Below are positions 48,392-63,945 of a DNA stretch of 64,000 nt, piece after piece. Position 1 is the first letter of the stretch, and the number at the start of each line of letters is the position of its first letter. Below the pieces are notes generated by a model. The model was not told where the DNA came from and searched no databases. It worked only from the letters and a program-made list of their open reading frames with translations. The stretch covers positions 4,224,001 to 4,288,000 of the forward strand of contig CM000154.2 in assembly GCA_000004695.1 (NCBI GenBank). The letters are read 5' to 3'. This DNA is from Dictyostelium discoideum. Its lineage: Eukaryota. A program made the position numbers and the translations under genes.

Positions 48392-48850
48392 GCGATCGAA
48401 AAAAAAAAAAAGAAAAAAAAATTGAAAAATTAAAAAAAAAAGTAAAAAAAAAAAACACAACGTTTTTTAATCTTCAAGAAACGTTTTAAAAATTAAAAAA
48501 ATTTTTTTTCAAAAAAACATTTTTTTTTTGCGCCAACTCTTTTTTAAAATTTTATTTATTTTTAATACAAATAAAACACCCAAAAGTACAAAATAATATA
48601 ATTCATTTTTTGAAATTGTTTTTTTATTTTAAAGAAAAATAAAGGTTTGAAAAAAAAAAAATAAAAAAAAAAATTGATTTGGTTTATTTTTTTATTTGAT
48701 ATTTTCTTTGCTGTGAATAAATAAAAAAAAAAGTTTCCAATATTTTGGTCAAATCCAGAACATTTTAAAACACTCGATTTTTATTTTTTATTTTATTTAT
48801 TTTCTGAATAATGCCATTTTTAATTTCTGATTGTTTTATTGATTAGAAAA

Positions 48851-48905
<55 letters not shown>

Positions 48906-48923
48906 AATCCAGTAATAAAATTT

Positions 48924-50935
48924 CTATATTTCTTTAATAATTTCTACAGATTCATCTAATTTACAAATATCTAATGATTGATTAAAATTATATTGTAAAA
49001 TAATTTTTGGTATATGTTTGGGTATTGATCCTTCAATTAGTGGTGTATTCATTTCTCCTAATGTTAATTGCTTTATTGAATTTGGAATGATTCCTGGTGT
49101 TAGTTGATGTTTGAATCCTCCATAAATACTGAGATATGTTACAGAATTTGGTATTGAATTTATTTCTAATGATTGTTTAGTACCATTTAAATATAAGAAT
49201 TTCGCTCCATCACTAATTATACCTGGTGTTATTAATTGATCGAAAACATCATTGAAATGTAAATTAGTGACTGATTTAGGAATTGATCCAACAACTAATG
49301 GTGATTTAATATTATAGAAGTATAAATATTTTACACTTTCTGGTATAATACCTGGTGAGAGTAATTGTTTAAAACCATCATTAAACGTAATTGATTCAAC
49401 TGAATTTGGAATTGAACCAATCTTTAATTCACTTTTAATATTATTTAAACTTAACTCTTGTATACCTTCAGGTATCAAAGAAATGGTACCGATTGATAAT
49501 GGTTGATTAAATCCATTTTGTAAACAAAGATAAGATACAGTTTTAGGAATTGATCCAATCTCTAATGAATGTTTGATATCTCTTAAATTCAAATATCTGA
49601 CGCTCGAGGGAATAATACCTGGTTCTAGTGATTGGGAAAATCCATCACAAACATGCAAATGATTTACAGAATTAGGAATTGAACCAATCTTTAATGGCTT
49701 TTTAATGTCGTGTAGATATAAATATTTAGCCCTCGAAGGAATAATACCAGCTTCAATTGATTGATTAAATCCATCATGAAATGATAACCACCCAACACGT
49801 GATGGTATTGATCCAATTACCAAGGGTGTTTTAATATCATATATATCTAAATATTCAATACCAAGTGGTAATACACCTGGTTCTAAACTTTCTTTAAATC
49901 CATCTAATAATATTACATGCCAAAAATTTTTATTTGATTTAAGTTTTAATAAACTACCGCACTCTTCTCCAAGTGCAATTTTAACATCATCTTTTGGTAA
50001 TTCACTGTTCTCTGAATATAAATAATACTTTTCACCACTACCAAATTCTATTTTTAAAATAAAATGTTAATATACTTTTATTATTTACATATATACTTGT
50101 AATTAAACATACTTTTTATAAATTTATAATTATTTTCATCAGTTTCAATCTTAAATTTTTCATTTAATTCATTATTATTTTTATTATAATTATTATTATA
50201 ATTATTATTATTATTATTATAATTATTATTAATAAGTTCATATATTGATTCTAAATTATTTTTAATTTCATCAATTATTTGATTATTGAATTTAATGATT
50301 TGATTATTATATTCTTTTAATTTATTTTGATTATTGATATTTATATTATTTTTTAATAACAATAATGATTGTTGATATTGTTTAATTAGTTCAATTGTAT
50401 CAGTACCTTTATGATAACCAATAATATCTTCATCACCATAATCATAATCATTATAATTTTGTTGAATATTTTTTATTGAATTGTTTAATTTATCAATCAT
50501 TGGGTTATTATTATATTTATTACTATTATTATCAATATTGATTGAGGAGGTAATAGTTGCATTTATTAATGTATTTTCTTGGAAAATTGTTTCTAATTGT
50601 TTTTCGATATCTAATTCAAGTATTGAGAGTATGTGATGAAGTTTTTTAAATTCATCTTTAAGTAATTTTTTATTTTCATCATTTTGTAATTGAATTTCAT
50701 TGAAAATTTCATTGGAATCTTTTAATGTTTGTTTATTATCTCCAATTCTTTCAAGTAATTTCGGGTAAACATCGTCTTTAAAATTATTCATCATTGAAAG
50801 AATGTTTGATATTGATATTGGTTCTAATCCATGACGATGATGAGAACCATTACTGGATGCACATAAAATACAACATGGTATTAATTTACAATCTAAACAT
50901 AAAAGTTCAACATTTTTACTTGGATGGATTGAACA

Positions 50936-50986
<51 letters not shown>

Positions 50987-51001
50987 TGTTAATGATATCA
51001 T
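48924..51001 (-). CDS. B-box zinc finger plus coiled-coil plus FNIP-repeat protein (intact unit 1 of a tandem array), two exons, about 670 aa
   Basis: Exon 1 is 51001..50113 (MISLTNNNN…[42 protein letters not shown]… is a B-box-type C/H cluster, followed by coiled-coil, ending …NNYKFIK, donor GTATGT, phase 1). The intron is 65 nt (50112..50048). Exon 2 is 50047..48924 ([22 protein letters not shown]… then FNIP repeats GSIPxSV..L.F.DGFNQ…). The only boundary pair that keeps the frame was chosen; a GTAAAT/49-nt alternative would create a stop. Confidence 0.7.
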
Positions 51002-51355
51002 AATATAAATTAAAAGGTCTGATAGTTTTTTTTATTGTTCAAATGAAGTTATTATTGATTTTTGATGGTGAAAAAAATGAAAAAAAAAAAAAAAAAATGA
51101 AAAAAAAAATTATTATCTTAAATATTTGGGTGTTTTATTTTAAATTTTCAATCTTCCCACATCCACAATTTATTTTTTTTTTAATTAAAAAAAAGTTAAA
51201 AACAATAATTTAAAAATAGAAAAAGATAAAAAAAAAAAAAAAAAATTAAAAAAAAATAAAAAATAAAAAACCTAATACAGTAAAATATTTTAATTCTATT
51301 TCTATTTCTAATTTTATTTAATAATTTCTACAGATTTATCTAATTTACAAATATC

Positions 51356-52934
51356 TTATGATTGATTAAAATTTTTTTGTAAAATAATTTTTGGTATATT
51401 TTTGGGTATTGATCCTTCTATTAGTTGTGTATTCATTATTCCTAGTGTAAATTGCTTTTTTGAATTTGGAATGATTCCTGGTGTTAGTTGATGTTTGAAT
51501 CCTTTATAAATACTGAGATTTGTTACAGAATTTGGTATTGAATTTATTTCTAATGATTGCATAGTATCATTTAAATATAAGAATTTCACTCCATCACTAA
51601 TTATACCTGGTGTTATTAATTGATCGAAACCATTTTCGAACCATAAATCAGTGACTGATTTAGGAATTGATCCAACGACAAATGGTATTTTAATATTATA
51701 GAACAATAATTTTTTTTCACTTTCTGGTATAATACCTGGTGGGAGTAATTGGTTAAAACCATTATTAAATGAAATGGATTCAACTGAATTAGGAATTGAC
51801 CCAATTTGTAAATTTAAATTAATTCCATTATAAAATTATAATAATATAACGCCATTTGGAATTGAACCAACCTTTAATTCACTTTTAATATATAAACTTA
51901 ATGTTGTATACCTCCAGGTATCAAAGAAATGGTTTCGATTGATAATGGTTGATTAAATCCATCTTCTAAGCAAAGATTATCAACAGTTTTTGGAATTGAT
52001 CCAATCTCTAATGAATGTTTGATATCTCTTAAATATAAATATTTGACACTTGAGGGAATAATACCTGGTTCTAATGATTGGGAAAATCCATCACAAAAAC
52101 CCAAACTATTTACAGTATTAGAAATTGAACCAATCTTTAATGGCTTTTTAATGTAGAATTAAAATTCCAACACTAGAAGGAATAATACCATCTCCAATTG
52201 ATTGATTAAATCCATCATGAAATGTAACCACCCAACACTTGATGGTATTGATCCTTTTACTAATGGTGTTTTAATATCACATATCACTAAATATTCAACA
52301 CCAAGTGGTAATACCCCTGGTTCTAAACTTTCTTTAAATCCATCTAATAATATTACATCCTTTATATTTTCATTTGATTTGAGTTTTAATAAACTACCAC
52401 AATCTTCTCCAAGTGCAATTTTAACATTATTTTTTGGTAATTCACTGTTCTCTGAATATAAATAATACTTTCCAATACCAATTTCTATTTTTAAAATAAA
52501 ATGTTAATATACTTTTATTATTTACATATATACTTGTAATTAAACATACTTTTTATAAATTTATAATTATTTTCATCAATTTCAATCTTAAATTTTTCAT
52601 TTAATTTACTATTATTATTATTTTTATAATTATTATTATTATTATTATTATTATTATTTAGTTCATAAATTAATTTTAAATTATTTTTAATATCATCAAT
52701 TATTTGATTATTGAATTTAATGATTTGATTATTATATTCTTTTAATTTATTTTGATTATTGATATTTATATTATTTTTTAATAATAATAATGATTGTTGA
52801 TATTGTTTAATAAGTTCAATTGTATCAGTACCTTTATAATAACCTATAATATCTTCATCACCATAATCATAATCATCATAATTTTGTTGAATACTATTAA
52901 TATTTTTTATTGAAATATTTAATTTATCAATCAT
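51356..52934 (-). pseudogene. decayed array unit 2: FNIP-repeat exon with frameshifts/indels plus C-terminal half of the B-box/coiled-coil exon; zinc-finger part deleted
   Basis: Nucleotide-level copy of unit 1, with the same flanks (ttatttaataatttctacagatttatctaatttacaaatatc…). The FNIP part is broken into ORFs of 116, 62 and 68 aa in different frames with scrambled blocks at 51800..52200. The B-box exon is retained only from …[13 protein letters not shown] (52518..52934). Its 5' side is replaced by an (ATT)n tract and unrelated sequence. Confidence 0.55.
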
Positions 52935-52937
52935 TGA

Positions 52938-52943
<6 letters not shown>

Positions 52944-53030
<87 letters not shown>
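52944..53030. repeat. (ATT)n microsatellite, about 29 units, at the truncation point of array unit 2
   Basis: Seen directly. The same (ATT/AAT)n runs (poly-N codons on the minus strand) occur at the 5' ends of the other units (50940..50995, 60150..60235, 62070..62135). This is a plausible substrate for slippage or unequal exchange. Confidence 0.85.
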
Positions 53031-53035
<5 letters not shown>

Positions 53036-53975
53036 TATTGTCACCAATTAAATCTGTAACATCTGCACCTTCAATTCACTATACACCAGTAAATGATAAT
53101 AATCAACAACCTCAACTACCATCACAACCCAATGAAGAATTTCAATTTACTGTACCAACTACTCCAAGTGATAAAAAGAAGAAAAGGGGTAGTTTTTCAA
53201 GTAAATTAAAAAGATTAAGTATAACATTTTCCAAAGATTAAAAATTTTTAAATTTTACTTTTTTTCTTTATAGAAAAATCTATCATTTAAATATCAAAAT
53301 AAAAAAAATCTATCACAATCTATAATCAAATCTTTTTTTTTTTTTTTTTTTTTTTTTTTTGATTTTTTGGTGTTTTGAAGATATTTTTTATTTAAAATTA
53401 ATAATTATTTTTTAAAAAAAGGTAGAAAGATAAAAAAACAAAAAGGTTTGGATAAATTATTTAGTGAGAGGCTTCAAATATAATAAATAAAAAATAAATA
53501 TAAAAAATTAATTTTTGGGTCTGAGGTTGAAGTCACACAATTTTTAATTTTTTTATTTTAATTATTTATTATTTTAAATCAATTTTCAAAAATACTGTTT
53601 TTAAGATTGGCATTTTTTAGTGTTTTGAAGATATCTTTTTTTCGATAATTAGTTTTTTAAATTTTTTTATTTTTTTTATTTTTTTTTTTTTTATTTTAAA
53701 GATTCGCACATTCACCAATTAAAAAACACAAACCCTAAAAAATGTAATGAGTGAAAGATAACACTCCATTTTGACACCTGCTTGTGTTGAATTGAACAAA
53801 GATCTAAATCATGGGTTAAAAAAAAAAATAAAAAAAAAATAATAATAATAGACTTAAAAAAAAAAAATATAAATACTTTAAAACTTTTTTTTTTTTTTTC
53901 ATTCCCAAAAATAAATTAAATAACTTTTAAAACAAATAATTTAAATAAAAAAATAAAAAAATAAAAAATAAAAAA

Positions 53976-56282
53976 ATGATTAATATTGAAGATATTTCAA
54001 AATCTTCAAACCAAAGTGAAGAAAAACAATTAAAAAGTACAAGTTCAAAACCAAAATACTCATTCGCAGCAAAAAGTTTATTCAAAGGTTCAAATAATAT
54101 TACACCATATTATTTATCAACCAGTAATACATTCCAATGTGTAGCATCTGAGTCAATTCAAACATGGCTTCTTTCGGATGATGGTCATATCTTTACATCC
54201 AGTGGTAATTTTGTTTTAGATGTTTCATCAGGTGGTTATTTTGTTGAATTAGTACAACTTAATTCAAATTCAAAAACTCAAATTTGGACAATTGATACAA
54301 CAAATAATAAAATTCAAAACCAAGGTAATGGTAATTACCTTGATATCGACTGTTTCAATATTTGTGTTGCACCTTTAAATGGAAACGCAACTCAACAATG
54401 GACAACTTTTAGAAGAGCACCAATTCCAACTGGTAATTGGGGCTACTTTCAAAGTGAACAATTGGGTTCAAATAATTATTGGGGTTTAAGTGTATTAAAT
54501 AATAGTACATCATATAATACTAGTGTAGTAATGAATAAAGTTCAAGCAAAATCAAAAGGTCAAATTTGGCAAATGACAAGCGATGGTCACATTTTATCAC
54601 GTTTGGATGGTAATTTAGTATTAGATATTGGTCCATCAATTAATGGTAGTACAACAAACTATTATTTAAATACCAATGTTTACAAAGCAAATGATCTAAT
54701 GCAACAATGGGGTATCAACGAAAATAATCAAATATTCAATCAATATTATCCAAATTTATGTATTGGATTCGTTGGTCAACTTGGAGTTGATTCAACTGTT
54801 AATTGTGTATTAGCTCAACCAAGTAGTGCTTGTGATACTTGTTTCCAATGGATTGCAAATCCAACCTATTCATTAAACCAAATTGTTAGTGAAGTACCAG
54901 AACCATTTCCAGCTTACACAAGTGGTGATTTATTAGCATCATATCAATACCTTAGTAATGATGCAACTTCTAATTTTACTGATGATATTAGATCACTTTA
55001 TACAGGAATCAATGTTAGTTTACAATCCTTTTTAAGTATTGTCACCAATGCAACTTGTCCATCATCAATTCATTCAACTGAAGATTTTTCAAATGTTCAA
55101 AATCAAATCAAAACTGAACTCATCTATGCAATCGATGTCCGTTTAGTATTTGAAAACTATTCTGGTTTTTATAGTAAATTATTTAGTCAAGGTAGTTCAA
55201 ATTTAACAAATTTAGCAAATTTAATTAATGTTGATATGTCATCTAATCAAATGGTTAATGCAAATTATACTGATGCAATTACTAGTATTTTTTATTCACT
55301 TATTTCAGAGATTCCAGTAGGTGGTTCAATAATTGCAAACATTGGTCAATCAGCAGTAGAATTTGGTGAATTAATGTCTCAAAGTAATTATCAAGGTGCA
55401 TCAACCTATCAAGTTGAATTAAGTCAACTCTACACTCATTTAAATACAAACTATGAAAATGAAATGGCAAATGCTCAAAGTATGAAGGATACCATTTTAC
55501 AAGATTGGGGTATGATGAGTAAAACTTATGCATTATGTTTCTTACCAACCAATGATCCTTCCTCTCTCAATATGAATGGGTTAGACTTTGAAAAAATTTC
55601 AGATGTTGCATCTGTAGCTTACGAAATTGCAATGATTCAAATGTTATTACCAACTACTTATCAAATTTACTTTACATCAGCTGGTTATTGGGTACCATAT
55701 TCAGATGGTGATTTCGCTTATAGTGATAACTCTGGAACCTATATTATGGCCACTATCAAGTATAGTAATTCTTATCCTCCAAAGGAATTGACTGATAAGT
55801 TATGGAATAATGGGGTTTCAAAACAAGAATTTTTCTTGTCAGCTTATGGTTGGAATTTAGCTACCTCGCTCACCTACTACAATACTACTAACCAGTATAG
55901 TAATATCTTTAAATTAGCCTTTCCAACAATTAAAAATTTTACAGGAGTACCAATGCAATTTGTAATGACCAATGATGGTGATAATCTTGGTAATTTCACA
56001 GTCAAAACTCATTTTGCAAAATTCTTTTCAACATATTACAGTGTTGGAGATCTTGGTCATCATTATTTCGACATTGCTGTAACTGATATTAACAAAAACA
56101 AGGTTGCAAATTTCACAGTTGACATTAAATTAAAAGCTCTCGAAGGTAGTTATGTTTCAATCAAAACTGGTTCATTAGTTGTTCAGCCAGGTTATGCTGT
56201 TGGTAATCCAATTTGTAATCAAGGTAGTTATTCTCTAATGTTTTCTGCTTCAATTTTAATTCCAATTTATAAATCAGAATAA
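53976..56282 (+). CDS. ricin-B-type (beta-trefoil, QxW) lectin domain protein with large C-terminal helical plus beta domain; possible toxin-like protein, 768 aa
   Basis: Single ORF. Residues about 40..330 contain repeated QxW lectin signatures (QIWTI, QQWTTF, QIWQM, QQWGI, FQWIANP) spaced as in tandem beta-trefoils. The C-terminal roughly 440 aa has a predicted helical region followed by a beta-rich tail (…[59 protein letters not shown]…). No obvious signal peptide. Confidence 0.65.
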
Positions 56283-56399
56283 AAAAATAAAATCATCAGA
56301 ATATAAAAACCAATTTATATTCTTATCAATTATTAAAAATTAAAAATAAAATAAAATAAAATAAAATAAAATCCTTAATCGACTATAAAAAAAAAATTG

Positions 56400-56780
56400 T
56401 TGGATGGTGAAAAGAAAATGATCCCCAATAATAAACTAGTAGTAAATAGTTGAGTTATTATTTATTATTTATTTTTTATATTTTTTTTAAAAATGATTTA
56501 ATTGAAAAGGAAATTCTATGGGTTTGTAAAGTTCCACTGCCATGATGAACATTGAAACCCACAACATTGCATTCTAATAATGAATCATGTTAGCACCAGT
56601 ATCAATATTATTGATTATTTGAAGTGAGTTGTTGAGTTTGGCCTAATCATAAACCAGGTACACATAGTTTATCAGTGAAGGAGGCGTTTGGATGATTGAT
56701 TGTGTTGTTGGTTGAGATGAATCGAAAAGATTACCTTAGTAGCTGATAGAGGTGTTGAACTATTACTACTATATATTATT

Positions 56781-56846
<66 letters not shown>

Positions 56847-57590
56847 GCATTATTTACCAAGTATAAATCCTTTTGAATTGAATTAATAGTCTCATTGCTC
56901 CACGATAATTGGCAGTAGAAGTGGCGATTGACTACTATAATCAGAATCCTAAATTTTTTGTCTTGAAATAGGTGGTGTTGTTGCTTGTGTTTCTGTTACA
57001 AATAAATTTGTAATAATTAGAACAAAGGAAATTACCACCAATATCAATAGCCTTGAGAAGGTGGATCACTAGTTCTACATAATTGATGAATGGAATAACA
57101 AGTATGAGTACGGGTATACCCAGAACGACTAACAGAATCAACGGCGGAACAAACTTTTTGTTTTAGTTTACATCGTGGACAACCATAGCATTACGAATGT
57201 AGAACTATGGTGGATTATTAAAGATATCAAACAATGGATGTCTTGCAGGGTATACGTTGATACAACTGAAGTGACTTGGATACGATCAGGTTTCTCCAAA
57301 CAAATCCAATGATAGATTGCGATGTTTTAAATTTATTCTTCATATAAACCATATGGTTGAAAAGATTGTTACAGATTTACCACCTGTGATAACAATGGGT
57401 TGCATCAATCAACTTCAGAGCGTAGATTTCATGAATTCTCTGGCTTGTTGAGATTTTGTCTCATTTTCTTTTTCAGAGTTACCATTTACTGGCTAGATTC
57501 GAAGAGTAAGAATTGATTCATGAGCTGCAATTGTTTCGATTGTGATGCTGGTGATTTGATATTGTTGTTGATGTTGTAGTTGATGTTGAA
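56400..57590. other. about 1.1-kb GC-richer (roughly 38-40% GC), homopolymer-free, ORF-less island; possible foreign/TE-derived fragment or non-coding transcript
   Basis: Composition shifts abruptly from >85% AT to mixed sequence with no poly(A/T). Stops occur in all six frames (longest ORFs 62 and 66 aa). Contains a (TTG)22 microsatellite. It abuts, at 57596, a copy of the array's promoter-proximal element exactly where a gene body would be expected. Confidence 0.4.
56782..56847. repeat. (TTG)n microsatellite, about 22 units
   Basis: Seen directly within the GC-richer island. Confidence 0.9.
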
Positions 57591-57595
57591 AAAAA

Positions 57596-57734
57596 TAATT
57601 TTTTCTATTGCTCAAATGAAGTTATTATTGGTTTTATGGTGGGAAAAAAAATAAAAAAAATGTTAAAAAAAAATTATTTTTTTCAAATTTAATTATTTTT
57701 ACAACTTAATTTTTTTAATAATTATAAAAAATAG

Positions 57735-57780
<46 letters not shown>

Positions 57781-58100
57781 AAATTAATTAGCAGCATCAA
57801 ACATTAATCGGTGCACAACAATTTTTATTTTTACACATCAAATCTCACCTATATTATTTCAATATCTCACATAAAAATTTATAATTTAAATTGATCTTAG
57901 ATTATATGATAAAAAAAATCATCAAATTTAATTTTTTTTTTTTTTTTTGATGAATTAAATTTCATTAATTTAGTAATAGTAGTTTTTGGTTCTTCATATC
58001 CAAATATAATTTTATTTTTATATTCTTAAATAATTTATTAGAATAAAAAAGATTTTTTTTATTTTTTATTTTTTATTTTTTTTTGAAAGATATTTATGGT
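57596..58100. repeat. about 500-bp dispersed repeat, copy A (array-unit 5'-flank element)
   Basis: Near-identical over about 480 bp to 62184..62670. It starts with the motif ttctattgctcaaatgaagttattattggttttatggtg, which also occurs immediately upstream of the ATG of unit 1 (51040..51080) and unit 3 (60270..60310). Internally it contains …catcaaatttaatt-T(17)-gatgaattaaatttcat…, a T-run flanked by short inverted arms. Confidence 0.7.
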
Positions 58101-58327
58101 TGTGTTCAATTTTAAATTTGTAATCTACAAATTAAAAATAGTAATCCAAAAAAGAAAAAGAAAAAAAAAAAAGAAGATATTTACTTTTTTGATCAAAAAA
58201 AAAAAAACTAATTTCTTTAATCAATAAAACATTAACAATTTTTTACTTATAAAAATTTCCTATTATATTTTTTTTTTTCTCCATAAAAAATTTACTGTTA
58301 TAAATAGTTTATCTGGATTATTAAAAT

Positions 58328-58384
<57 letters not shown>

Positions 58385-58559
58385 GTGATTAACAATTAAA
58401 TATTAAATTAAATTTCATCATCAGTTAGGAATAGTAGTTTTTGTTCTTCAAATTCAAAAATTTAATTTTATTCTTATTTTTTTATTTTTTTTTTTGAAAA
58501 TTTTATAACAAATAATGTCATTTTAATTTCTGGTTTCATTGATTGGAATATTTTGGGTA

Positions 58560-59702
58560 TTGATCCTTCAATTAGTGGTGTATTCATTTTCCTAATGTTA
58601 ATTGCTTTATTGACTTAGTACAGTAGTATAATTTTGTATTATTCTATATTTCAATTTTTTTTAATAATTTCTACAGATTTATCTAATTTACAAATATCTA
58701 ATGATTGATTGAAACTTCTTTGTAAAATAATTTTTGGTATATTTTTGGGTATTGATCCTTCTATTAGTTAGATCAAAGAAATGGTACCTGATATATCTCA
58801 ACTTTAAAACTCTGACACTTGAGGGAATAATACCTGGTTCTAATGATTGGGAAAATCCATCACAAACATAAAAAATATTTACAGAATTGGGGATTGAACC
58901 AATCTTTAATGGCTTTTTAATGTCGTGTAGAAATAAATATTGAACACTCGAAGGAATAATACCAGCTTCAATTAATTGACTAAATCCATCATAAAATGAT
59001 AACCACCAAACACTTGATGGTATTGATCCTTTTACTAATGGTGTTTTAATATCACATATCTCTAAATATTTAATACCAAGTGGTAATACACCTGGTTCTA
59101 AACTTTCTTTAAATCCATCTAATAATATTACATGCTTAATATTTTTATTTGATTTGAGTTTTAATAAACTACCACAATCTTCTCCAAGTGCAATTCTATA
59201 ATTATCTTTTGGTAATTCACTGTTCTCTGAATATATATAATACTTTTCTCCAGTACCAAATTCTATTTTAAATTAAAATGTTAAAATAATTTTTTTATTT
59301 AAATAAATACTTGTTATTAAACATACTCTTTATAAATTTATAATTATTTTCATCAATTTCAATCTTAAATTTTTTACTATTATTATTACTATTATTATTA
59401 ATAAGTTCATATATTAATTTTAAGTTATTTTTTATATCATTAATTTTTTGATTATTGAATTTAATGATTTGATTATTATAATTTTTTAATTTATTTTGAT
59501 TATTGATATTTATATTATTTTTTAATAACAATAATGATTGTTGATATTGTTTAATTAGTTCAATTGTATCAGTACCTTTATGATAACCAATTATATCTTC
59601 ATCACCATAATCGATATCATCATAATTTTGTTGAATATTATTAATATTTTTTATTGAAATATTGAGTTTATCGATCATTGAGATATTATTATTTTTACTA
59701 TG

Positions 59703-59737
<35 letters not shown>

Positions 59738-60176
59738 CATTATTGATTGAAGAGGTTATATTTGCATTTTTTGATGAGTTTTCTTGGAATCCTGTTTCTA
59801 ATTGTTTTTCGATATCTAATTCAAGTATTGAGAGTATGTGATGAAGTTTTTTAAATTCTTCTTTGAGTAATTTTTTATTTTCATCATTTTGTGATTGAAT
59901 TTCATTGAAAATTTCATTGGAATCTTTTAATGTTTGTTTATTATTTCCAATTCTTTCAAGTAATTTTGGATAAACATCATCTTTAAAATTATTCATCATT
60001 GAAAGAATGTTTGATGTTGATATTGGTTCTAATCCGTGACGATGATGAGAACCATTAATGGATGTACATAAAATACAACATGGTATTAATTTACAATCTA
60101 AACATAAAAGTTCCAAATTTTTACTTGGATGAATTGAACATTTTTTATTTTTATTATTATTATTATTATTATTATA

Positions 60177-60224
<48 letters not shown>

Positions 60225-60281
60225 TGCTAATGATATCATAATATAAATTAAAAAGGTGTGATAATTTTTTCTATTATTCAA
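58560..60281 (-). pseudogene. array unit 3: B-box/coiled-coil exon intact (59295..60281, 328 aa) but FNIP-repeat exon internally deleted/decayed
   Basis: B-box [24 protein letters not shown]…[42 protein letters not shown]… has the same GTATGT donor and AATAG acceptor as unit 1. The downstream exon keeps the first few FNIP repeats (59230..58800), then jumps to the terminal …[14 protein letters not shown] block with stops. It might still encode a truncated protein. Confidence 0.45.
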
Positions 60282-60324
60282 ATGAAGCTACTATTGGTTT
60301 TATGATGTTAAAAAAAACAAAAAA

Positions 60325-60356
<32 letters not shown>

Positions 60357-60700
60357 TAAAATTTCTTAAATCTTTTGAGTGTTTGTTTTTAAATTTGTAA
60401 TCTTCTCACACCCACACTCAGACATACCCACACCCTCAATTATTTTTTTATTAATAGAAATAATAAAAATTAATTAACAGTAACTTATTTAAATGTTAAA
60501 AAAAAAAGTTCCAAATACAATCAAATCCATAACATTTTGATACTCAATTTTTATTTATTTTATTTTATTTTATTTTTTTATTTTCCAAAAATATTTAATA
60601 TTTGGATAATAAAGTTCATTTAATTTCTAATGGTTTTGTTGATTAGAATAAAAAAAAAAAAACATAATATTGTAATATAATTTTTTATTATTCTATATTT

Positions 60701-62073
60701 CTAAATTAATTTAATAATTTTTACAGATTTATCTAATTTACAAATATCTAATGATTGATTAAAACTACTTTGTAAAATAACTTTTGGTATATTTTTGGGT
60801 ATTGATCCTTCAATTAGTGGTGTATCCATTATTCCTAATGTTAATTCCTTTATTGAATTTGGAATGATTCCTGGTGTTAGTTGATGTTTGAATCCTTCAT
60901 AAATACTGAGATAGGTTACAGAATTTGGTATTGAATTTACTTCTAATGATTGTTTAGTATCATATAAATATAAGAATTTCACTCCATCACTAATTATACC
61001 TGGTGTTATTAATTGATCAAAACCATTACAGAAATAAATTAGTGACTGATTTAGGAATTGATCCAGCAACTAATGGTACTTTAATATAAAAGAACCACAA
61101 ATATTTTACACTTTCTGGTATAATACCTGGTGAGAGTAATTGGCTAAAACCATTATTAAATGAAATGGATTCAACTGAATTAGGAATTGACCCAATTTGT
61201 AAATTTAAATTAATTTCATAACAAAAGTTTAATGATTTAACACCATTTGGAATAATACCTGGTTCTAGTGATTGAGAAAATCTATGAAGAAATATCAATG
61301 TTTTAACTGTTTTAGGAATTGAACCAATCTTTAATTCACTTTTAATATTATTTAAACTTAACTCTAGTATACATTCGGGTATCAAAGAAATGGTACCTAT
61401 TGATAATGGTTGATTAAATCTATTTTCTAAACAAAGATGAAAAACAGTATTTGGAATTGATCCAATCTCTAATGAATGTTTGATATCCCCTAAGTTTAAA
61501 GAACTGACTTTTGAGGGAATAATACCTGGTTCTAATGATTGGGAAAATCCATCACAAACATGCAAATGAGTTACAGAAATAGGAATTGAACCAATCTTTA
61601 ATGGCTTTTTAATGTCGTGTAGATACAAATATTTAACACTATAAGGAATAATACCAGCCTCAATTAATTGACTAAATCCATCATGAAATGATAACCAAAC
61701 AACACTTGATGGTATTGATCCTTTTACTAATGGTGTTTTAATATCACATATCTAAATATTCAATACCGAGTGGTAGTACACCTGGTTCTAAACTTTCTTT
61801 AAATCCATCTAATAATATTACATGCCTAATATTTTTATTTGATTTAAGTTTTAATAAACTACCACAATCTTCTCCAAGTGCAATTTTATCATTATCTTTT
61901 TGCAATTCACTGTTCTTTGAATATAATACTTTTCACCACTACTAATATCTATTTTTAAAATAAAATGTTAAAATACTTTTATTTTTTACATATATACTTG
62001 TAATTAAACATACTCTCTATAAATTTATAATTATTTTCATCAATTTCAATCTTAAATTTTTCATTTAATTTAC

Positions 62074-62128
<55 letters not shown>

Positions 62129-62197
62129 GTTGTTATTGTTTGTTAATGATATCATAATATAAATTAAAAAGGTGTGATAATTTTTTCTGTTGCTCAA
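60701..62197 (-). pseudogene. array unit 4: FNIP-repeat exon with a frameshift (ORFs 200 and 122 aa in different frames) and B-box exon reduced to 72 aa (zinc finger deleted)
   Basis: ORF 61979..62197 ([21 protein letters not shown]…N-run…[31 protein letters not shown]) lacks the whole Cys/His cluster and coiled-coil. The 61026..61628 and 60701..61069 ORFs overlap out of frame. A degenerate stretch lies at 61640..61960. Confidence 0.55.
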
Positions 62198-62670
62198 AGG
62201 AAGTTATGGTTTTATGATGTGAAAAAAAAAAAGAAAAAATGTTAAAAAAAAAAATAAAAAAAAAAAAAAATTATTTTTTTCAACCTTAAATTAAGTGTTT
62301 GCTTTTAAATTTGTAATCTACTCAGGCACCCATAATTTAATTATTTTTACAACTTAATTTTTTTTAATAATCATAAAAATAGAAAAAAAAAAAAAAAAAA
62401 AAAACAAATTAGCAACATCAAACATTAATCAATACACAACAATTTTTATTTTTACACATTAAATTTTACCTATATTATTTCTATATCTCAGATTATTTGA
62501 TTTTTATCATCAAATTTAATTTTTTTTTTTTTTTTTTTTTGATGAATTAAATTTCATTAATTTAGTCATATCCAAATATAATTTTATTTTTATATTCTTA
62601 AATAATTTATTAGAATAAAAAAAGATTTTTTCTTTTTTTTTTTTTGAAAGATATTTATGGTTATAATAAA
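62184..62670. repeat. about 500-bp dispersed repeat, copy B (5' flank of array unit 4)
   Basis: See copy A at 57596..58100. Co-linear and near-identical, including the T-run with flanking inverted arms. Confidence 0.7.
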
Positions 62671-62925
62671 ATAAAAAAAATGATAAATTAATTCGTCACC
62701 AAAAAAAAAAATGGTGTGTTCTTTTCGAATCGGGCTTTTTTTTATTTTTTTTTAATTTTTTTTTTTTTTTTTTATTATTTTTACTTTCCCACTTTTCATA
62801 TTTAAACTAAAAAAAATCAAAAAATGTAAAATTAAAGTATTTATCTTTTTAATATTAAAAACAATAACAATATATATAAATTAATAAATAAGTTACTCAA
62901 TATTAAATTATTATTATTATTATTA

Positions 62926-62969
<44 letters not shown>

Positions 62970-62972
62970 GGA

Positions 62973-63945
62973 ATGTCACAAAATGATAAGAAAGTTTTTT
63001 ATATTACTGGTGCAAGTAAAGGATTTGGTTTAGAATTAACCAATCAATTACTTGAGAGAGGATTTAATGTTGTGGCAACTTCAAGAAATAAACAACAATT
63101 ATCAAATAGTGTGAATAATAAATTTGTTACAAATGATAACTTTTTAGCATTACAAGTTGATCTCACATCCAATGAATCAGTAAAGAATTCAATTGATGAA
63201 ACAATCTCAAAATTCACTCGTATTGATGTTATCATTAATAATGCAGGTTATTCACAATGTGGTACAATTGAAGAATTAACAGATAAAGAAATTAGAGATA
63301 ACTTTGAATGTAATGTTTTCGGTGTTATCTCTGTAATTCGTAATGCACTTCCACATTTACGTATAAATAAGTTTTTTGCAAATGGGCCTAGAATAATTAA
63401 CATTTCATCAATTGCTGGATTTACAGGATCATTTCCAGGATTTAGTATTTATTCATCAACTAAATTCGCATTGGAAGGTTTAACAGAAGGTTTGAATGAA
63501 GATTTGAAAGAGTTTGGTATACATGCATCAACTGTATTACCAGGTTATTTTAGAACATCATTTTTAGAGAAAGGTTCAGTGGCAGTTCCATCACATCCAA
63601 TTAAAGAATATACAGCAGTTAGAAAAATTCAAGAAATTCATGAAAATCAAATTAATGGTAATCAACAAGGTGATCCTGTAAAAGGTTGTAAAGTTATCAT
63701 TGATCATGCATTATCTGAAAATCCAACAACTCATCTTTTCTTAGGTCCAGACTCAATGAAATATGCTCAATCCAAAATTGAAGCAATTCAAAATGATATC
63801 AAATCAAATTATGTATGTTTTTTTTTTTTTTTTTTATTTCATTAATAATTCTTTATTTAAATCATAATATTAATATTAAAATTTTTATCATTATTGTTGA
63901 ACATAAATTTAGGATGCAGCTTCTAAAACTGATTTCACAAATTAA
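62973..63945 (+). CDS. short-chain dehydrogenase/reductase (classical SDR), two exons, about 290 aa
   Basis: Exon 1 is 62973..63812 (MSQNDKKVFYITGASKGFGLELTNQLLERGFNVVATSR… is the TGxxxGxG Rossmann motif; also NNAGY, and catalytic S…YSSTKFALEGL giving YxxxK; donor GTATGT). Proposed short terminal exon is 63913..63945 (DAASKTDFTN*) after a TTTAG acceptor. The terminal exon is inferred from splice consensus only. Confidence 0.75.

Follow-up and report, generated by a model that had tools for sequence, protein, structure and literature searches.

Intact and Damaged B-box/FNIP Gene Copies in a Strain-Variable Cluster on Chromosome 5 of Dictyostelium discoideum

How does a group of neighboring, closely related genes come to hold one intact member beside several damaged ones? 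The question is posed by a locus within a 64,000-nucleotide, AX4-like window (the whole stretch of DNA analyzed) of Dictyostelium discoideum chromosome 5, where self-BLAST reveals four minus-strand units, U1 to U4, sharing 85–90% nucleotide identity over 1–1.8 kb. The cluster extends past the window to further units, U5 and U6. The initial annotation saw here a tandem array caught at progressive stages of decay. A different reading is likely: the region is part of a lineage-variable chromosome 5 cluster of duplicate genes undergoing birth-and-death turnover, in which U1 is intact, U2 and U4 are unprocessed pseudogenes, and U3 is truncated with its ORF open.

The parallel diagonals predicted for a dot plot are present in the self-BLAST. 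U1 (48847-50539) aligns with U2 (51212-52973) at 85.8% over 1783 nt, U1 (49574-51167) with U3 (58789-60416) at 84.8% over 1674 nt, and U1 (49216-50230) with U4 (61120-62131) at 86.8% over 1019 nt; U2 and U4 match at 89–90% and U3 and U4 at 87%, all with E = 0. The units are duplicated copies of one gene with its intron retained, as had been proposed, and because introns and promoters are retained the duplication took place at the DNA level. The four units are indeed co-oriented but not contiguous: 5.6 kb containing cupH and other DNA separates U2 from U3, and the locus is therefore not a simple head-to-tail array.

U1 provides the reference for judging the other copies.

48924..51001, minus strand: U1, intact B-box/coiled-coil/FNIP gene, 670 aa (gene model, Pfam, homologue alignment)
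50113-51001, minus strand: U1 exon 1 (gene model)
50048-50112, minus strand: U1 intron, 65 nt, GT..AG (gene model)
48924-50047, minus strand: U1 exon 2, FNIP (gene model)
51130..51153, minus strand: U1 upstream element GATTGAAAATTTAAAATAAAACAC, 24 nt (element search; unit alignments)

The claim that only U1 is intact holds within the window. The product of a full unit opens with a brief poly-Asn leader and a B-box zinc finger; a coiled coil spanning about 100 residues comes next, with a helical linker, and the C-terminus is formed by an FNIP domain, a solenoid of FGxxFN-type leucine-rich repeats. In U1, Pfam identifies FNIP at E = 6e-61, with nine stretches in exon 2, and zf-B_box at 23.6 bits, just below the curated cut-off. 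The FNIP exon matches Crov588 (PDB 6nyr) over residues 380-654 at E = 1e-63. Across 28 aligned homologues the zinc ligands C23, H26, C35, C38, C44, C47, H54 and H57 are the sole invariant columns. An AlphaFold2 model of exon 1 shows the B-box at pLDDT about 88–91 and a single long helix over residues 64-160 at about 90. Its best fold matches are a TRIM72-type B-box with coiled coil and the MuRF1 B2 box (rmsd 1.3 Å), at weak E-values (best 0.025, none ≤0.001). The protein of a full unit resembles a TRIM protein without its RING domain; the B-box and coiled coil would give self-assembly, and the fast-evolving FNIP domain would give variable partner recognition.

The damage differs from copy to copy. 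U2 is interrupted by foreign DNA, beyond which relics of further unit sequence are found.

51314..53039, minus strand: U2, 5'-truncated pseudogene (unit alignments)
52550-52941, minus strand: U2 exon-1 remnant (unit alignments)
52485-52549, minus strand: U2 intron (unit alignments)
51314-52484, minus strand: U2 FNIP exon (unit alignments)
52942-53039, minus strand: (AAT)33 tract, the 5' border of U2, where homology to other units begins
53042..56515, plus strand: inserted cup-gene segment of about 3.5 kb (91% identical to L002 9067-12550)
53976-56282, plus strand: cupH CDS (protein an exact match to EAL62142/Q54FW5)
56516..57590, unstranded: 1.07 kb of relatively GC-rich DNA without an open frame (sequence comparison, ORF reading)
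56782-56847, unstranded: (CAA)22 within this GC-rich DNA (repeat reading)
57590..57740, minus strand: unit-promoter remnant (BLAST matches to the U1, U3 and U4 upstream regions)
57686..58101, unstranded: D', another, diverged copy of distal upstream/intergenic DNA (self-BLAST)
58102..58125, minus strand: orphan 24-nt promoter element with no unit downstream (element search)
58543..58616, minus strand: 76-nt 3' fragment of an FNIP exon, then unit-type 3' flank (95% identical to U1 49007-49082)

U2 is without promoter, start codon and B-box, confirming the reported loss of its zinc finger. Its FNIP exon, described as scrambled, is colinear with the other units and instead frameshifted: it has lost 1 nt at about 52225, 5 nt at about 52155 and 1 nt at about 51902, and it carries in-frame stops. 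The cup segment has its counterpart in L002 9067-12550, which covers the first gene in the main cup cluster and its flanking DNA. The copy extends 934 nt 5' of the cupH CDS, far enough to include the end of an unrelated gene of 1335 aa (3' tail, ORF 53038-53241), and about 230 nt 3' of it. Together with the 1.07-kb DNA, this copy took the place of the 5' half of U2. An origin of the U2 truncation in slippage was rejected: the break is the junction of the inserted 3.5-kb segment, which begins exactly where the (AAT)33 tract ends, and the repeat tracts there are inverted, not direct.

The promoter remnant at 57590-57740 stops about 25 nt short of the expected start codon and is without the 24-nt element; it is most simply read as the displaced promoter of U2. 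D' is 73% identical to 62334-62662, the other such copy lying between U4 and the SDR gene, and retains a 20-nt stretch missing from the AX4 copy. The fragment at 58543-58616 is a relic of one more unit.

U3 and U4 retain their upstream elements and carry lesions of other kinds.

58648..60239, minus strand: U3 (unit alignments)
59327-60239, minus strand: U3 exon 1, intact, with B-box (unit alignments)
59263-59326, minus strand: U3 intron, 64 nt (unit alignments)
60379..60402, minus strand: U3 upstream element (element search)
60701..62155, minus strand: U4, pseudogene (unit alignments)
62014-62155, minus strand: U4 exon-1 remnant, 47 codons (unit alignments)
61949-62013, minus strand: U4 intron (unit alignments)
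60701-61948, minus strand: U4 FNIP exon (unit alignments)
62295..62318, minus strand: U4 upstream element (element search)

U3 has kept its B-box exon and has an internally deleted FNIP exon, as originally described. Two deletions, with junctions at about 58770-58799, remove about 530 nt, leaving an ORF whose stop ends at 58688 and whose final 30 or so residues are out of frame. U3 is a truncated copy whose ORF, as read from the DNA, is still open. In U4, exon 1 joins the N-terminal (AAT)n straight to the C-terminal (AAT)n. The collapse of this exon had been recognized, but the remnant is 47 codons, the 72 aa first given having counted upstream non-coding sequence and intron read-through. The U4 FNIP exon is frameshifted, as stated, with 4 nt missing at about 61926, 2 nt at about 61752 and 2 nt at about 61036, and relative to most aligned units it has an extra 132 nt (61179-61310), about two FNIP motifs. 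The shared identity had been said to include the promoter element. This is true of U1, where a G-rich motif, TGTGGATGTGGG, precedes the element, and of U3 and U4, but not of U2; with the orphan copy the element has four hits against 0 expected.

Whether the damaged units still work can be approached through their substitution patterns. The FNIP exon has a mean dN/dS of 0.84, compared with 0.30 in the B-box/coiled-coil region and 0.18 in the 3' portion of exon 1. Terminal-branch omega, estimated from small counts, is about 1.1 for U2, which has three stop codons, 0.34 for U3 and 0.44 for U4. Only U2 appears to have a neutral pattern on its own branch, U3 and U4 behaving like intact copies; the broken units pooled against the rest give Fisher p = 0.37. 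The inactivation of U3 and U4 would be either recent or incomplete.

It is possible, though rather doubtful, that the truncated units are working derivatives, U3 as a B-box/coiled coil with a short FNIP domain and others as FNIP-only proteins, new members then arising repeatedly as the N-terminal module is shed, a change that is tolerated or even favored. U3 speaks for this, with its 495-aa ORF, a B-box at 25.1 bits (above the cut-off), FNIP matches and low terminal omega. Furthermore, damage is N-terminal only in four of the five lesioned units beyond U1–U4 (U5, RB, WB and WC), their FNIP exons are open for 327–374 aa, and WB is a clean in-frame ORF of 430 aa. In U5 a nonsense codon in exon 1 leaves a two-exon ORF of 511 aa that holds FNIP repeats alone. 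This agrees with what has been published on the cheater gene chtB (DDB_G0290617), a developmentally induced chromosome 5 gene with a knock-out phenotype that encodes FNIP repeats only in two exons with one short intron (PMC3559258). Accession-number arithmetic in RefSeq and UniProt places chtB beside the SDR gene that bounds the array. U5 is probably chtB, a candidate identity that depends on this arithmetic together with the description, and chtB would then lie just outside the window and not among U1–U4. Within the window, however, U4 reads from its start codon for 79 aa to a stop and has no domain. For U2, Pfam finds nothing in the longest spliced ORF, no 24-nt element lies within 4.6 kb, and the terminal omega and stop codons also speak against function. 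On these grounds U2 and U4 are probably dead, while U3 may be dead or alive.

The history of the cluster is illuminated by other strains. Between the TPP-enzyme gene and the SDR gene lie 15.3 kb and four units in the window; two further D. discoideum strains (GCA_054859385.1 and GCA_054859355.1) have 3.9–4.2 kb there, each with a single intact unit. D. cf. discoideum has at least three units in the corresponding interval, with several on either side of the SDR gene. At least six units are counted in a sibling lineage, and none is present at the corresponding place in D. citrinum. The expectation that the array would be prone to copy-number variation was thus borne out. The single unit of the other strains (RA/WA) is the orthologue of U1, with an FNIP identity of 95.4% to U1 versus about 90% to all others. 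U2–U4 differ from U1 and from one another by about 9–11%, and FNIP dS among paralogues is about 0.09–0.12, roughly twice the between-strain dS of the SDR gene (0.046–0.058). The paralogues are about equally diverged and their lesions mutually independent, so the proposed stages of progressive decay are not upheld; the cluster reflects birth-and-death turnover, not a graded series, and its paralogues are older than the divergence of the sampled strains. Since that divergence whole units would have been lost or gained, and for this reason copy number would differ between strains. Loss in the other strains and gain in the window lineage are told apart here by dS and tree shape.

The intergenic DNA beside the SDR gene bears on this history.

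62480..62972, unstranded: region D, intergenic, adjoining the SDR gene (92–93% identity to strains R and W)

In the other strains region D comes directly after the promoter of their single unit. This fusion of a U1-type promoter to the SDR-side intergenic region, as in a pre-duplication state, would fit a history in which a single unit is ancestral and the extra ones were duplicated recently, in the laboratory strain (AX4/NC4 lineage) alone; so would the absence of the block from D. citrinum and from both of the other D. discoideum strains. Such an origin is nevertheless improbable: U2–U4 are too far apart (FNIP dS about 0.10–0.12) compared with U1 orthologues (4.6%) and the SDR gene (dS about 0.05), and because their divergence exceeds that of the U1 orthologues the topology is ((U1, RA/WA), other units). 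D' is, moreover, just 73% identical to D, and multiple units flank the SDR gene on both sides in D. cf. discoideum.

Finally, it is next to impossible that U2–U4 are really intact, their frameshifts and deletions being artifacts of sequencing or assembly. Errors are common in such sequence (77–82% A+T, with long homopolymers and microsatellites), but the frameshifting deletions all lie outside long homopolymers, and the large deletions cover hundreds of bases. An independent chromosome-level assembly, GCA_054883475.1, compared with the window over 20 kb, differs in the length of six intergenic homopolymers and by one substitution in a 3' UTR, and nowhere else, with 0 differences at the U2–U4 lesions. 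Because this assembly shows each lesion again, they are not sequencing errors, and intact frames are not recovered.

U1 and U2 share a 96-nt identical run across the intron, and mean intron identity is 95.5%; both may be hints of gene conversion between units. Such conversion would blur age estimates and orthology calls.

Within the birth-and-death cluster, damage would have arisen by four routes: deletion of U4 exon 1 between two (AAT)n codon tracts; deletions between FNIP repeats in U3; small slippage deletions of 1–5 nt in U2 and U4; and, in U2, an insertion of about 4.5 kb carrying the cup lectin gene copy cupH, which would have replaced the part of the unit between a point just 5' of the start codon and the middle (AAT)n tract. 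The initial annotation placed (AAT)n runs at the truncation points and made slippage or unequal exchange there the driver of both birth and death of copies. Such runs do lie at both ends of the U4 deletion and at the edge of U2 homology, but the U3 deletions sit in FNIP repeats. As a source of damage the mechanism fits U4 and WB, a unit of another strain with the same N- to C-terminal (AAT)n collapse of exon 1. Its orthologue RB has a full-length exon 1, and the collapse in WB arose independently of that in U4. The mechanism does not account for U2, broken by the cup insertion, or for U3. For birth there is no evidence of it, as unit junctions fall in intergenic A/T runs.

A comparison with known systems places these features in context. 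Like other FNIP proteins (Pfam PF05725), of which Crov588 is a solved example (PDB 6nyr/6nys; PMC9525666), U1 has equal motif spacing of the GFNQxL..G.IP..V..L type, but in the units the repeats follow a B-box and coiled coil at the N-terminus of the same protein. Repeat number varies among paralogues: U4 has gained 132 nt and U2 66 nt, while RC and WC are without the FNIP stretch aligned to 138 nt of U1.

As in TRIM/RBCC proteins (TRIM72, MuRF1, TRIM5), an eight-ligand B-box leads directly into a helix spanning about 100 residues, after which come a helical linker and a variable C-terminal domain, and the N-terminal module is conserved (dN/dS 0.18–0.30) while the C-terminal domain evolves fast. 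In TRIM5/6/22-type clusters, too, paralogue number varies between lineages. Unlike TRIM proteins, the units end in an LRR-type solenoid, not SPRY, NHL or similar, and show no sign of E3 ligase activity, since RING is absent and just 22 residues, mostly Asn, precede the B-box; the fold-search likeness is itself weak.

B-box and FNIP are combined in the same organism in AreA (DDB_G0279871), which binds Atg101 (PMC4554924). AreA is, however, a distant paralogue on another chromosome with an additional DUF4559 domain; relatives from its neighborhood, such as DDB_G0279877, match U1 at about 30% identity, and the comparison yields no link of the units to autophagy.

The locus is an ordinary, well-documented kind of gene family cluster. 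Like plant NLR and olfactory-receptor clusters, it contains co-oriented paralogues with introns and promoters, some of them disabled; its copies are present in some strains and absent from others, and it has a repeat domain of the recognition type that evolves near neutrality. It departs from them in two respects: intragenic coding (AAT)n tracts are recurrent deletion end points, and one copy is broken by a dispersed lectin-gene duplicate, not a transposon.

Self-comparison of the window, whose very AT-rich sequence varies between 14 and 36% G+C, gives the parallel diagonals that the initial annotation had predicted for four B-box/coiled-coil/FNIP gene units, U1 to U4, all on the minus strand. 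U1 aligns with U2 at 85.8% identity over 1783 nt (48847-50539 with 51212-52973), with U3 at 84.8% over 1674 nt (49574-51167 with 58789-60416) and with U4 at 86.8% over 1019 nt (49216-50230 with 61120-62131); a further U1/U4 match of 77% (50937-51248 with 62091-62411) spans the gene start and promoter. The remaining pairs are 89-90% (U2 and U4), 87.6% (U2 and U3) and 87% (U3 and U4) identical. Three of the four copies, U2, U3 and U4, are disabled or truncated as judged from their sequence. U1 is a clean two-exon gene by ORF reading:

50113-51001, minus strand: exon 1 of U1, with the start codon at 51001
50048-50112, minus strand: intron of U1, 65 nt, GTATGT...TAG
48924-50047, minus strand: exon 2 of U1, completing a product of 670 aa
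52485-52549, minus strand: intron of U2
59263-59326, minus strand: intron of U3
61949-62013, minus strand: intron of U4

The intron is kept in all four units at 64-65 nt. Its mean identity over 66 unit pairs from four assemblies is 95.5%, which equals the conservation of the B-box/coiled-coil coding sequence (94.9%) and exceeds that of the FNIP exon (90.5-91.4%); this could be due to gene conversion, or to a functional element within the intron. Public gene calls give U1 624 aa and U6, an intact unit past the window end, 672 aa, each 46 codons below the continuous two-exon ORF. The U1 FNIP exon contains an in-frame 138-nt GT..AG segment (49352-49489 or 49295-49432), a candidate intron only, at the position of a segment absent from units RC and WC of strains R and W. 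Homology searches with the U1 protein and with the FNIP exon returned as top matches paralogues that are 46-55% identical, and the units' own products were not among the matches. Exact look-ups of the U1, U3 and U5 protein models and of single-exon ORFs gave no match in the collection searched, and literature searches on neighbouring DDB_G identifiers found nothing. Gene calls for the units' own products exist in assembly GCA_054883475.1.

The units belong to the FNIP repeat family. The Pfam model PF05725, whose 44 positions cover about two motifs of about 22 aa, matches nine stretches of U1 with 202.7 bits against a cut-off of 21 (E = 6e-61), and the frame fragments of U4 score 131.9 and 80.5 bits. 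Residues 380-654 of U1 match Crov588 (6nyr_A; phmmer against the PDB, E = 1.3e-63), a solved FGxxFN leucine-rich-repeat protein (PMC9525666) to which the U1 FNIP exon is homologous.

The Pfam B-box model PF00643 reaches 23.6 bits in U1 against a cut-off of 24.1 (E = 5.7e-5), and most homologues carry a precomputed match to it. The sole invariant columns among U1 and 27 homologues are C23, H26, C35, C38, C44, C47, H54 and H57, which have B-box spacing. An AlphaFold2 model of U1 exon 1 alone (mean pLDDT 74.6) shows the B-box at pLDDT 88-91, followed immediately by a single helix from 64 to 160 at about 90 and then by shorter helices. The modelled B-box superimposes on the MuRF1 B2 box with an rmsd of 1.3 Å and a target-normalised TM of 0.79, and the best fold matches for exon 1 are the TRIM72-type structures 7xv2 and 7xt2, which align over 217-219 columns but whose E-values, 0.025-0.14, are weak. 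The conserved spacing of the eight putative zinc ligands and the predicted fold point to a genuine B-box, and the model places it directly before a long coiled coil in the manner of TRIM (RBCC) proteins. Unlike these, the units lack an N-terminal RING finger: Pfam finds no RING domain in U1, where only 22 residues, mostly Asn, precede the B-box. The family would thus work like the TRIM family without being a member of it, combining a B-box/coiled-coil assembly module with a variable repeat domain. Experimental data on relatives are confined to AreA, which binds Atg101 (PMC4554924), and to chtB.

Each disabled copy carries its own set of lesions. U2 has no promoter, start codon or B-box, its homology to the other units starting at an (AAT)33 tract (52942-53039), and its FNIP exon has lost 1, 5 and 1 nt near 52225, 52155 and 51902, respectively, and contains in-frame stop codons; this exon had been described as scrambled but is colinear with those of the other units. 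U3 retains a complete exon 1 and an intron of 64 nt, while two internal deletions with junctions near 58770-58799 have removed about 530 nt of its FNIP exon. Its frame is open for 495 aa, with the final ~30 residues out of frame, and the ORF still matches the Pfam B-box (25.1 bits, above the cut-off) and FNIP (69.4 bits) models. In U4, exon 1 is reduced to 47 codons, the N-terminal (AAT)n being joined directly to the C-terminal (AAT)n, and the FNIP exon lacks 4, 2 and 2 nt near 61926, 61752 and 61036, respectively; translation from the start codon yields 79 aa and then a stop.

These lesions are real. An independent chromosome-level assembly, GCA_054883475.1 (locus L001), reached through the cupH protein, differs from the window over 20 kb only in six intergenic homopolymer lengths and one 3' UTR substitution. 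All frameshifts, stop codons and deletions of the units are identical in it, so correcting for sequencing errors does not restore intact ORFs. The initial annotation was right to read the locus as duplicated genes undergoing pseudogenisation. With introns and flanks kept and true frame-disrupting lesions, U2 and U4 show the pattern of unprocessed, duplicated pseudogenes, U3 being a truncated copy whose frame is still open; processed pseudogenes are ruled out by the retained introns and promoters. Automated public calls for the three copies run to 461, 501 and 425 aa; judged by span and length, these calls would have to include additional introns or reach past the unit.

The array is not contiguous, as had been supposed, since DNA bearing cupH, a cup lectin gene, separates U2 from U3. 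The 768-aa ORF at 53976-56282 exactly matches the AX4 'putative calcium up-regulated protein H' (cupH; EAL62142.1, Q54FW5), which places the window on chromosome 5 of D. discoideum AX4 or of a strain nearly identical to it. Window 53042-56515 is 91% identical to 9067-12550 of L002, the main cup cluster locus, which comprises the first gene of that cluster with 934 nt of 5' flank and about 230 nt of 3' flank; the 5' flank holds the final 200 nt of a 1335-aa gene that is unrelated. The accessions of cupH and of the SDR gene that bounds the array are consecutive in GCA_054883475.1 (KAM9948245, KAM9948246), and AX4 numbering leaves room for two proteins between them. The DNA between U2 and U3 contains, besides cupH:

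53038-53241, plus strand: orphan 67-aa ORF, the C-terminal tail of the 1335-aa gene upstream of the main cup cluster, copied along with cupH
56516-57590: relatively GC-rich DNA, 1.07 kb, with stop codons in all six frames
57590-57740: unit-type promoter remnant, ending about 25 nt short of the expected start codon
57686-58101: D', a diverged second copy, 73% identical, of the distal upstream/intergenic region (D) normally found between U4 and the SDR gene
58543-58616: 76-nt relic of the FNIP-exon 3' region, followed by unit-type 3' flank

The most economical reading of this arrangement is a replacement. About 4.5 kb carrying cupH would have taken the place of the U2 sequence between a point shortly before the start codon and the middle (AAT)n tract, and the old U2 promoter would thereby have been stranded 4.6 kb away. 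The left end of the cup segment abuts the (AAT)33 tract of U2 exactly, and at the source locus an (AAT)5 run stops 12 nt short of the break. The involvement of a transposon or tRNA-targeted retroelement is not supported: no tRNA genes or Rfam matches occur in 46-64 kb, and 56516-57590 has no ORF in any frame. That stretch includes a perfect (CAA)22 run (56782-56847), an automated 155-aa gene call sits on it, and comparisons covering the window and the cup cluster found no match to it elsewhere in either. Homologous exchange between direct (AAT)n repeats does not explain the U2/cup junction, because the tracts of the two partners there are in inverted orientation; the initial annotation was wrong about the cause of the U2 truncation. 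U2 and U3 are not the halves of one unit split by the insertion, because they overlap: the intron, along with the 3' portion of exon 1 and the 5' portion of the FNIP exon, occurs in both.

The array varies widely among strains and species. The same locus was found elsewhere through orthologues of the SDR gene. In strains R (GCA_054859385.1) and W (GCA_054859355.1), both labelled D. discoideum, the interval from the TPP-enzyme gene, which bounds the array on its other side, to the SDR gene measures 3.9-4.2 kb, compared with 15.3 kb and four units in the window, and holds one intact unit each (RA, 663 aa; WA, 692 aa). The FNIP exons of RA and WA are 95.4% identical to that of U1 versus about 90% to that of every other unit, and the two units have indels and 3' flank in common with U1, of which they are by these sequence criteria the orthologues. 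They have a U1-type promoter (89% identical, versus 74% to the U4 promoter), which runs straight into the SDR-side intergenic region (92-93% identical). R and W therefore lack about 11.5 kb, corresponding to window positions of roughly 51270-62480 with U2, the cupH segment, U3 and U4. In D. cf. discoideum at least three units precede the SDR gene and at least three follow it:

L006 1921-9474 and 11660-20347: at least six B-box/FNIP units of D. cf. discoideum flanking the SDR orthologue

Exon 1 has collapsed in one of these and carries a large insertion in one (836-aa call); one has its break inside a poly-Asn tract. At identities of 82-90%, none can be paired clearly with any of U1-U4 as a one-to-one orthologue. 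The units are followed by a second copy of the SDR gene. With no unit at the orthologous position in D. citrinum, the counts between the TPP-enzyme gene and the SDR gene are four in the window, one each in R and W, at least three in D. cf. discoideum and none in D. citrinum, in keeping with the copy-number variability that had been expected.

The units behind these counts do not form a graded age series, whether loss or gain produced them, so the stages of "progressive" decay seen in the array by the initial annotation do not hold. Synonymous divergence of the SDR gene between the window and R is 0.058, and 0.046 between the window and W. FNIP dS amounts to 0.09-0.12 between paralogues and 0.07-0.09 between U1 and RA/WA, and the unit topology is ((U1, RA/WA), other units). 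The paralogues are therefore older than the split of the sampled strains, and by these sequence comparisons it is more probable that the single-unit state arose by loss than that four units were gained recently. The paralogue age estimate could be distorted by gene conversion, of which long identical runs are signs; U1 and U2 have an identical run of 96 nt across the intron.

Selection on the units is asymmetric. Mean dN/dS between paralogues is 0.30 in the B-box and first coiled coil, 0.18 in the 3' part of exon 1 and 0.84 in the FNIP exon. For the FNIP exon it is 1.06 (U1 and U6) and 0.90 (RC and WC) between intact copies, and 1.25 between the open FNIP exons of RB and WB, the units directly after the SDR gene in R and W; orthologous values are 0.35-0.48. 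The locus thus exemplifies a TRIM-like family in which the repeat domain is near-neutral and the B-box and coiled coil are conserved. On terminal branches omega is about 1.1 in U2 (three stop codons), 0.34 in U3 and 0.44 in U4, compared with 0.07-0.55 in six of the nine other units, those without a high ratio. Only U2 looks neutral on its terminal branch, and U3 and U4 appear to resemble intact units. A pooled Fisher test on the terminal branches gives p = 0.37, from small counts and with low power because FNIP omega between intact paralogues is itself already about 0.9-1.06.

The (AAT)n tracts recur as end points of these losses. Dictyostelium is very rich in coding poly-Asn (AAT)n tracts, and exon 1 of the units has three. 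The U4 deletion spans the first to the third tract, and U2 homology stops in the second. WB shows the same first-to-third collapse as U4. Its orthologue RB shares the position after the SDR gene, a shifted start codon, a 3-nt deletion and a FNIP exon of 93.6% identity, and keeps a full-length exon 1; the WB collapse is therefore independent of that in U4. The break in WC lies just 5' of the middle tract, and a unit of D. cf. discoideum is broken inside that tract. The proposal that slippage or exchange at (AAT)n runs drives both the birth and the death of copies is supported by these lesions in so far as the tracts appear fragile and exon-1 sequence is lost there. The lesions do not show that the tracts give rise to new copies. 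Where one unit meets the next, the junction lies in an intergenic A/T run (51212-51270 is an example), and it is the FNIP periodicity that holds the U3 deletions as well as the differences in repeat number seen in U4, U2, RC and WC. The locus is a compact example of coding poly-Asn tracts as recurrent intragenic deletion end points.

The cluster does not end at four units. Two more, U5 and the intact U6, lie past the SDR gene (62973-63945) in the AX4-like assembly. U5 is 91% identical to U1 and has an intact FNIP exon:

L005 11412-13538, just past the window end: U5, with a GAA codon of the coiled-coil region changed to TAA

This nonsense codon divides the unit into calls of 138 and 511 aa, the longer being a two-exon ORF with FNIP repeats only (194.5 bits by Pfam). 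Its structure fits the published description of chtB (DDB_G0290617), a chromosome 5 gene with FNIP repeats only, two exons and one short intron, which is developmentally induced and whose knock-out is a social cheater (PMC3559258). RefSeq and UniProt numbers run in step along the region (cupH, XP_635652/Q54FW5; SDR gene, XP_635655/Q54FW2; DDB_G0290679, XP_635687/Q54FT0), and accession arithmetic puts DDB_G0290617 on the first protein after the SDR gene. Together, the ORF structure and this arithmetic make U5 probably chtB. The REMI insertion site of chtB is chr5:4377789, and literature searches on chtB and cupH yielded no coordinates tying chtB to any unit. If the two are the same, the published cheater gene is a naturally truncated allele of a B-box/FNIP gene in a polymorphic cluster, and the reading of the knock-out phenotype and of paralogue redundancy would be affected. 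In the other strains, the corresponding units have an 11-nt deletion in the B-box (RB) and a collapsed exon 1 (WB), so the N-terminal lesion of the SDR-adjoining unit differs among all three strains. Despite these lesions, the FNIP exon is open in U5, RB and WB.

Upstream of the units lies a 24-nt element, GATTNNAAATTTAAAANNNAACAC, with four matches in the 64-kb window, all on the minus strand, where none is expected. Three are upstream of U1, U3 and U4 and one is an orphan at 58102-58125; the search of the window found none upstream of U2. A G-rich motif, TGTGGRTGTGGG, stands directly 5' of this element in most promoter-bearing units:

51154-51170: G-rich motif
60403-60418: G-rich motif
L003/L004: G-rich motif in RA, RB and WB

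The motif is similar to the G-boxes that GBF, a Dictyostelium factor, binds. A GBF-type G-box would fit the developmental induction reported for chtB.

The D. discoideum genome is known for its expanded FNIP families and poly-Asn tracts, and the locus is a well-resolved instance of a well-known kind. It exemplifies large copy-number differences among strains all labelled D. discoideum. A rather improbable reading, drawn by analogy with TRIM5 and NLR clusters, would make it a rapidly diversifying polymorphic recognition locus with a social/kin or defence role, in which the (AAT)n tracts would serve as recombination hot spots that time and again turn full-length genes into FNIP-only derivatives, these derivatives, chtB among them, would be expressed and show phenotypes, and "decayed" copies would form a functional reservoir. 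The importance of the locus is mainly in curation and evolutionary description, and its most useful leads are the possible chtB link and the asymmetric selection pattern.

The SDR gene itself (plus strand) has as its closest non-Dictyostelium relatives enzymes of Bacteroidota, 50-55% identical over the full length, a resemblance that may reflect an old horizontal transfer.
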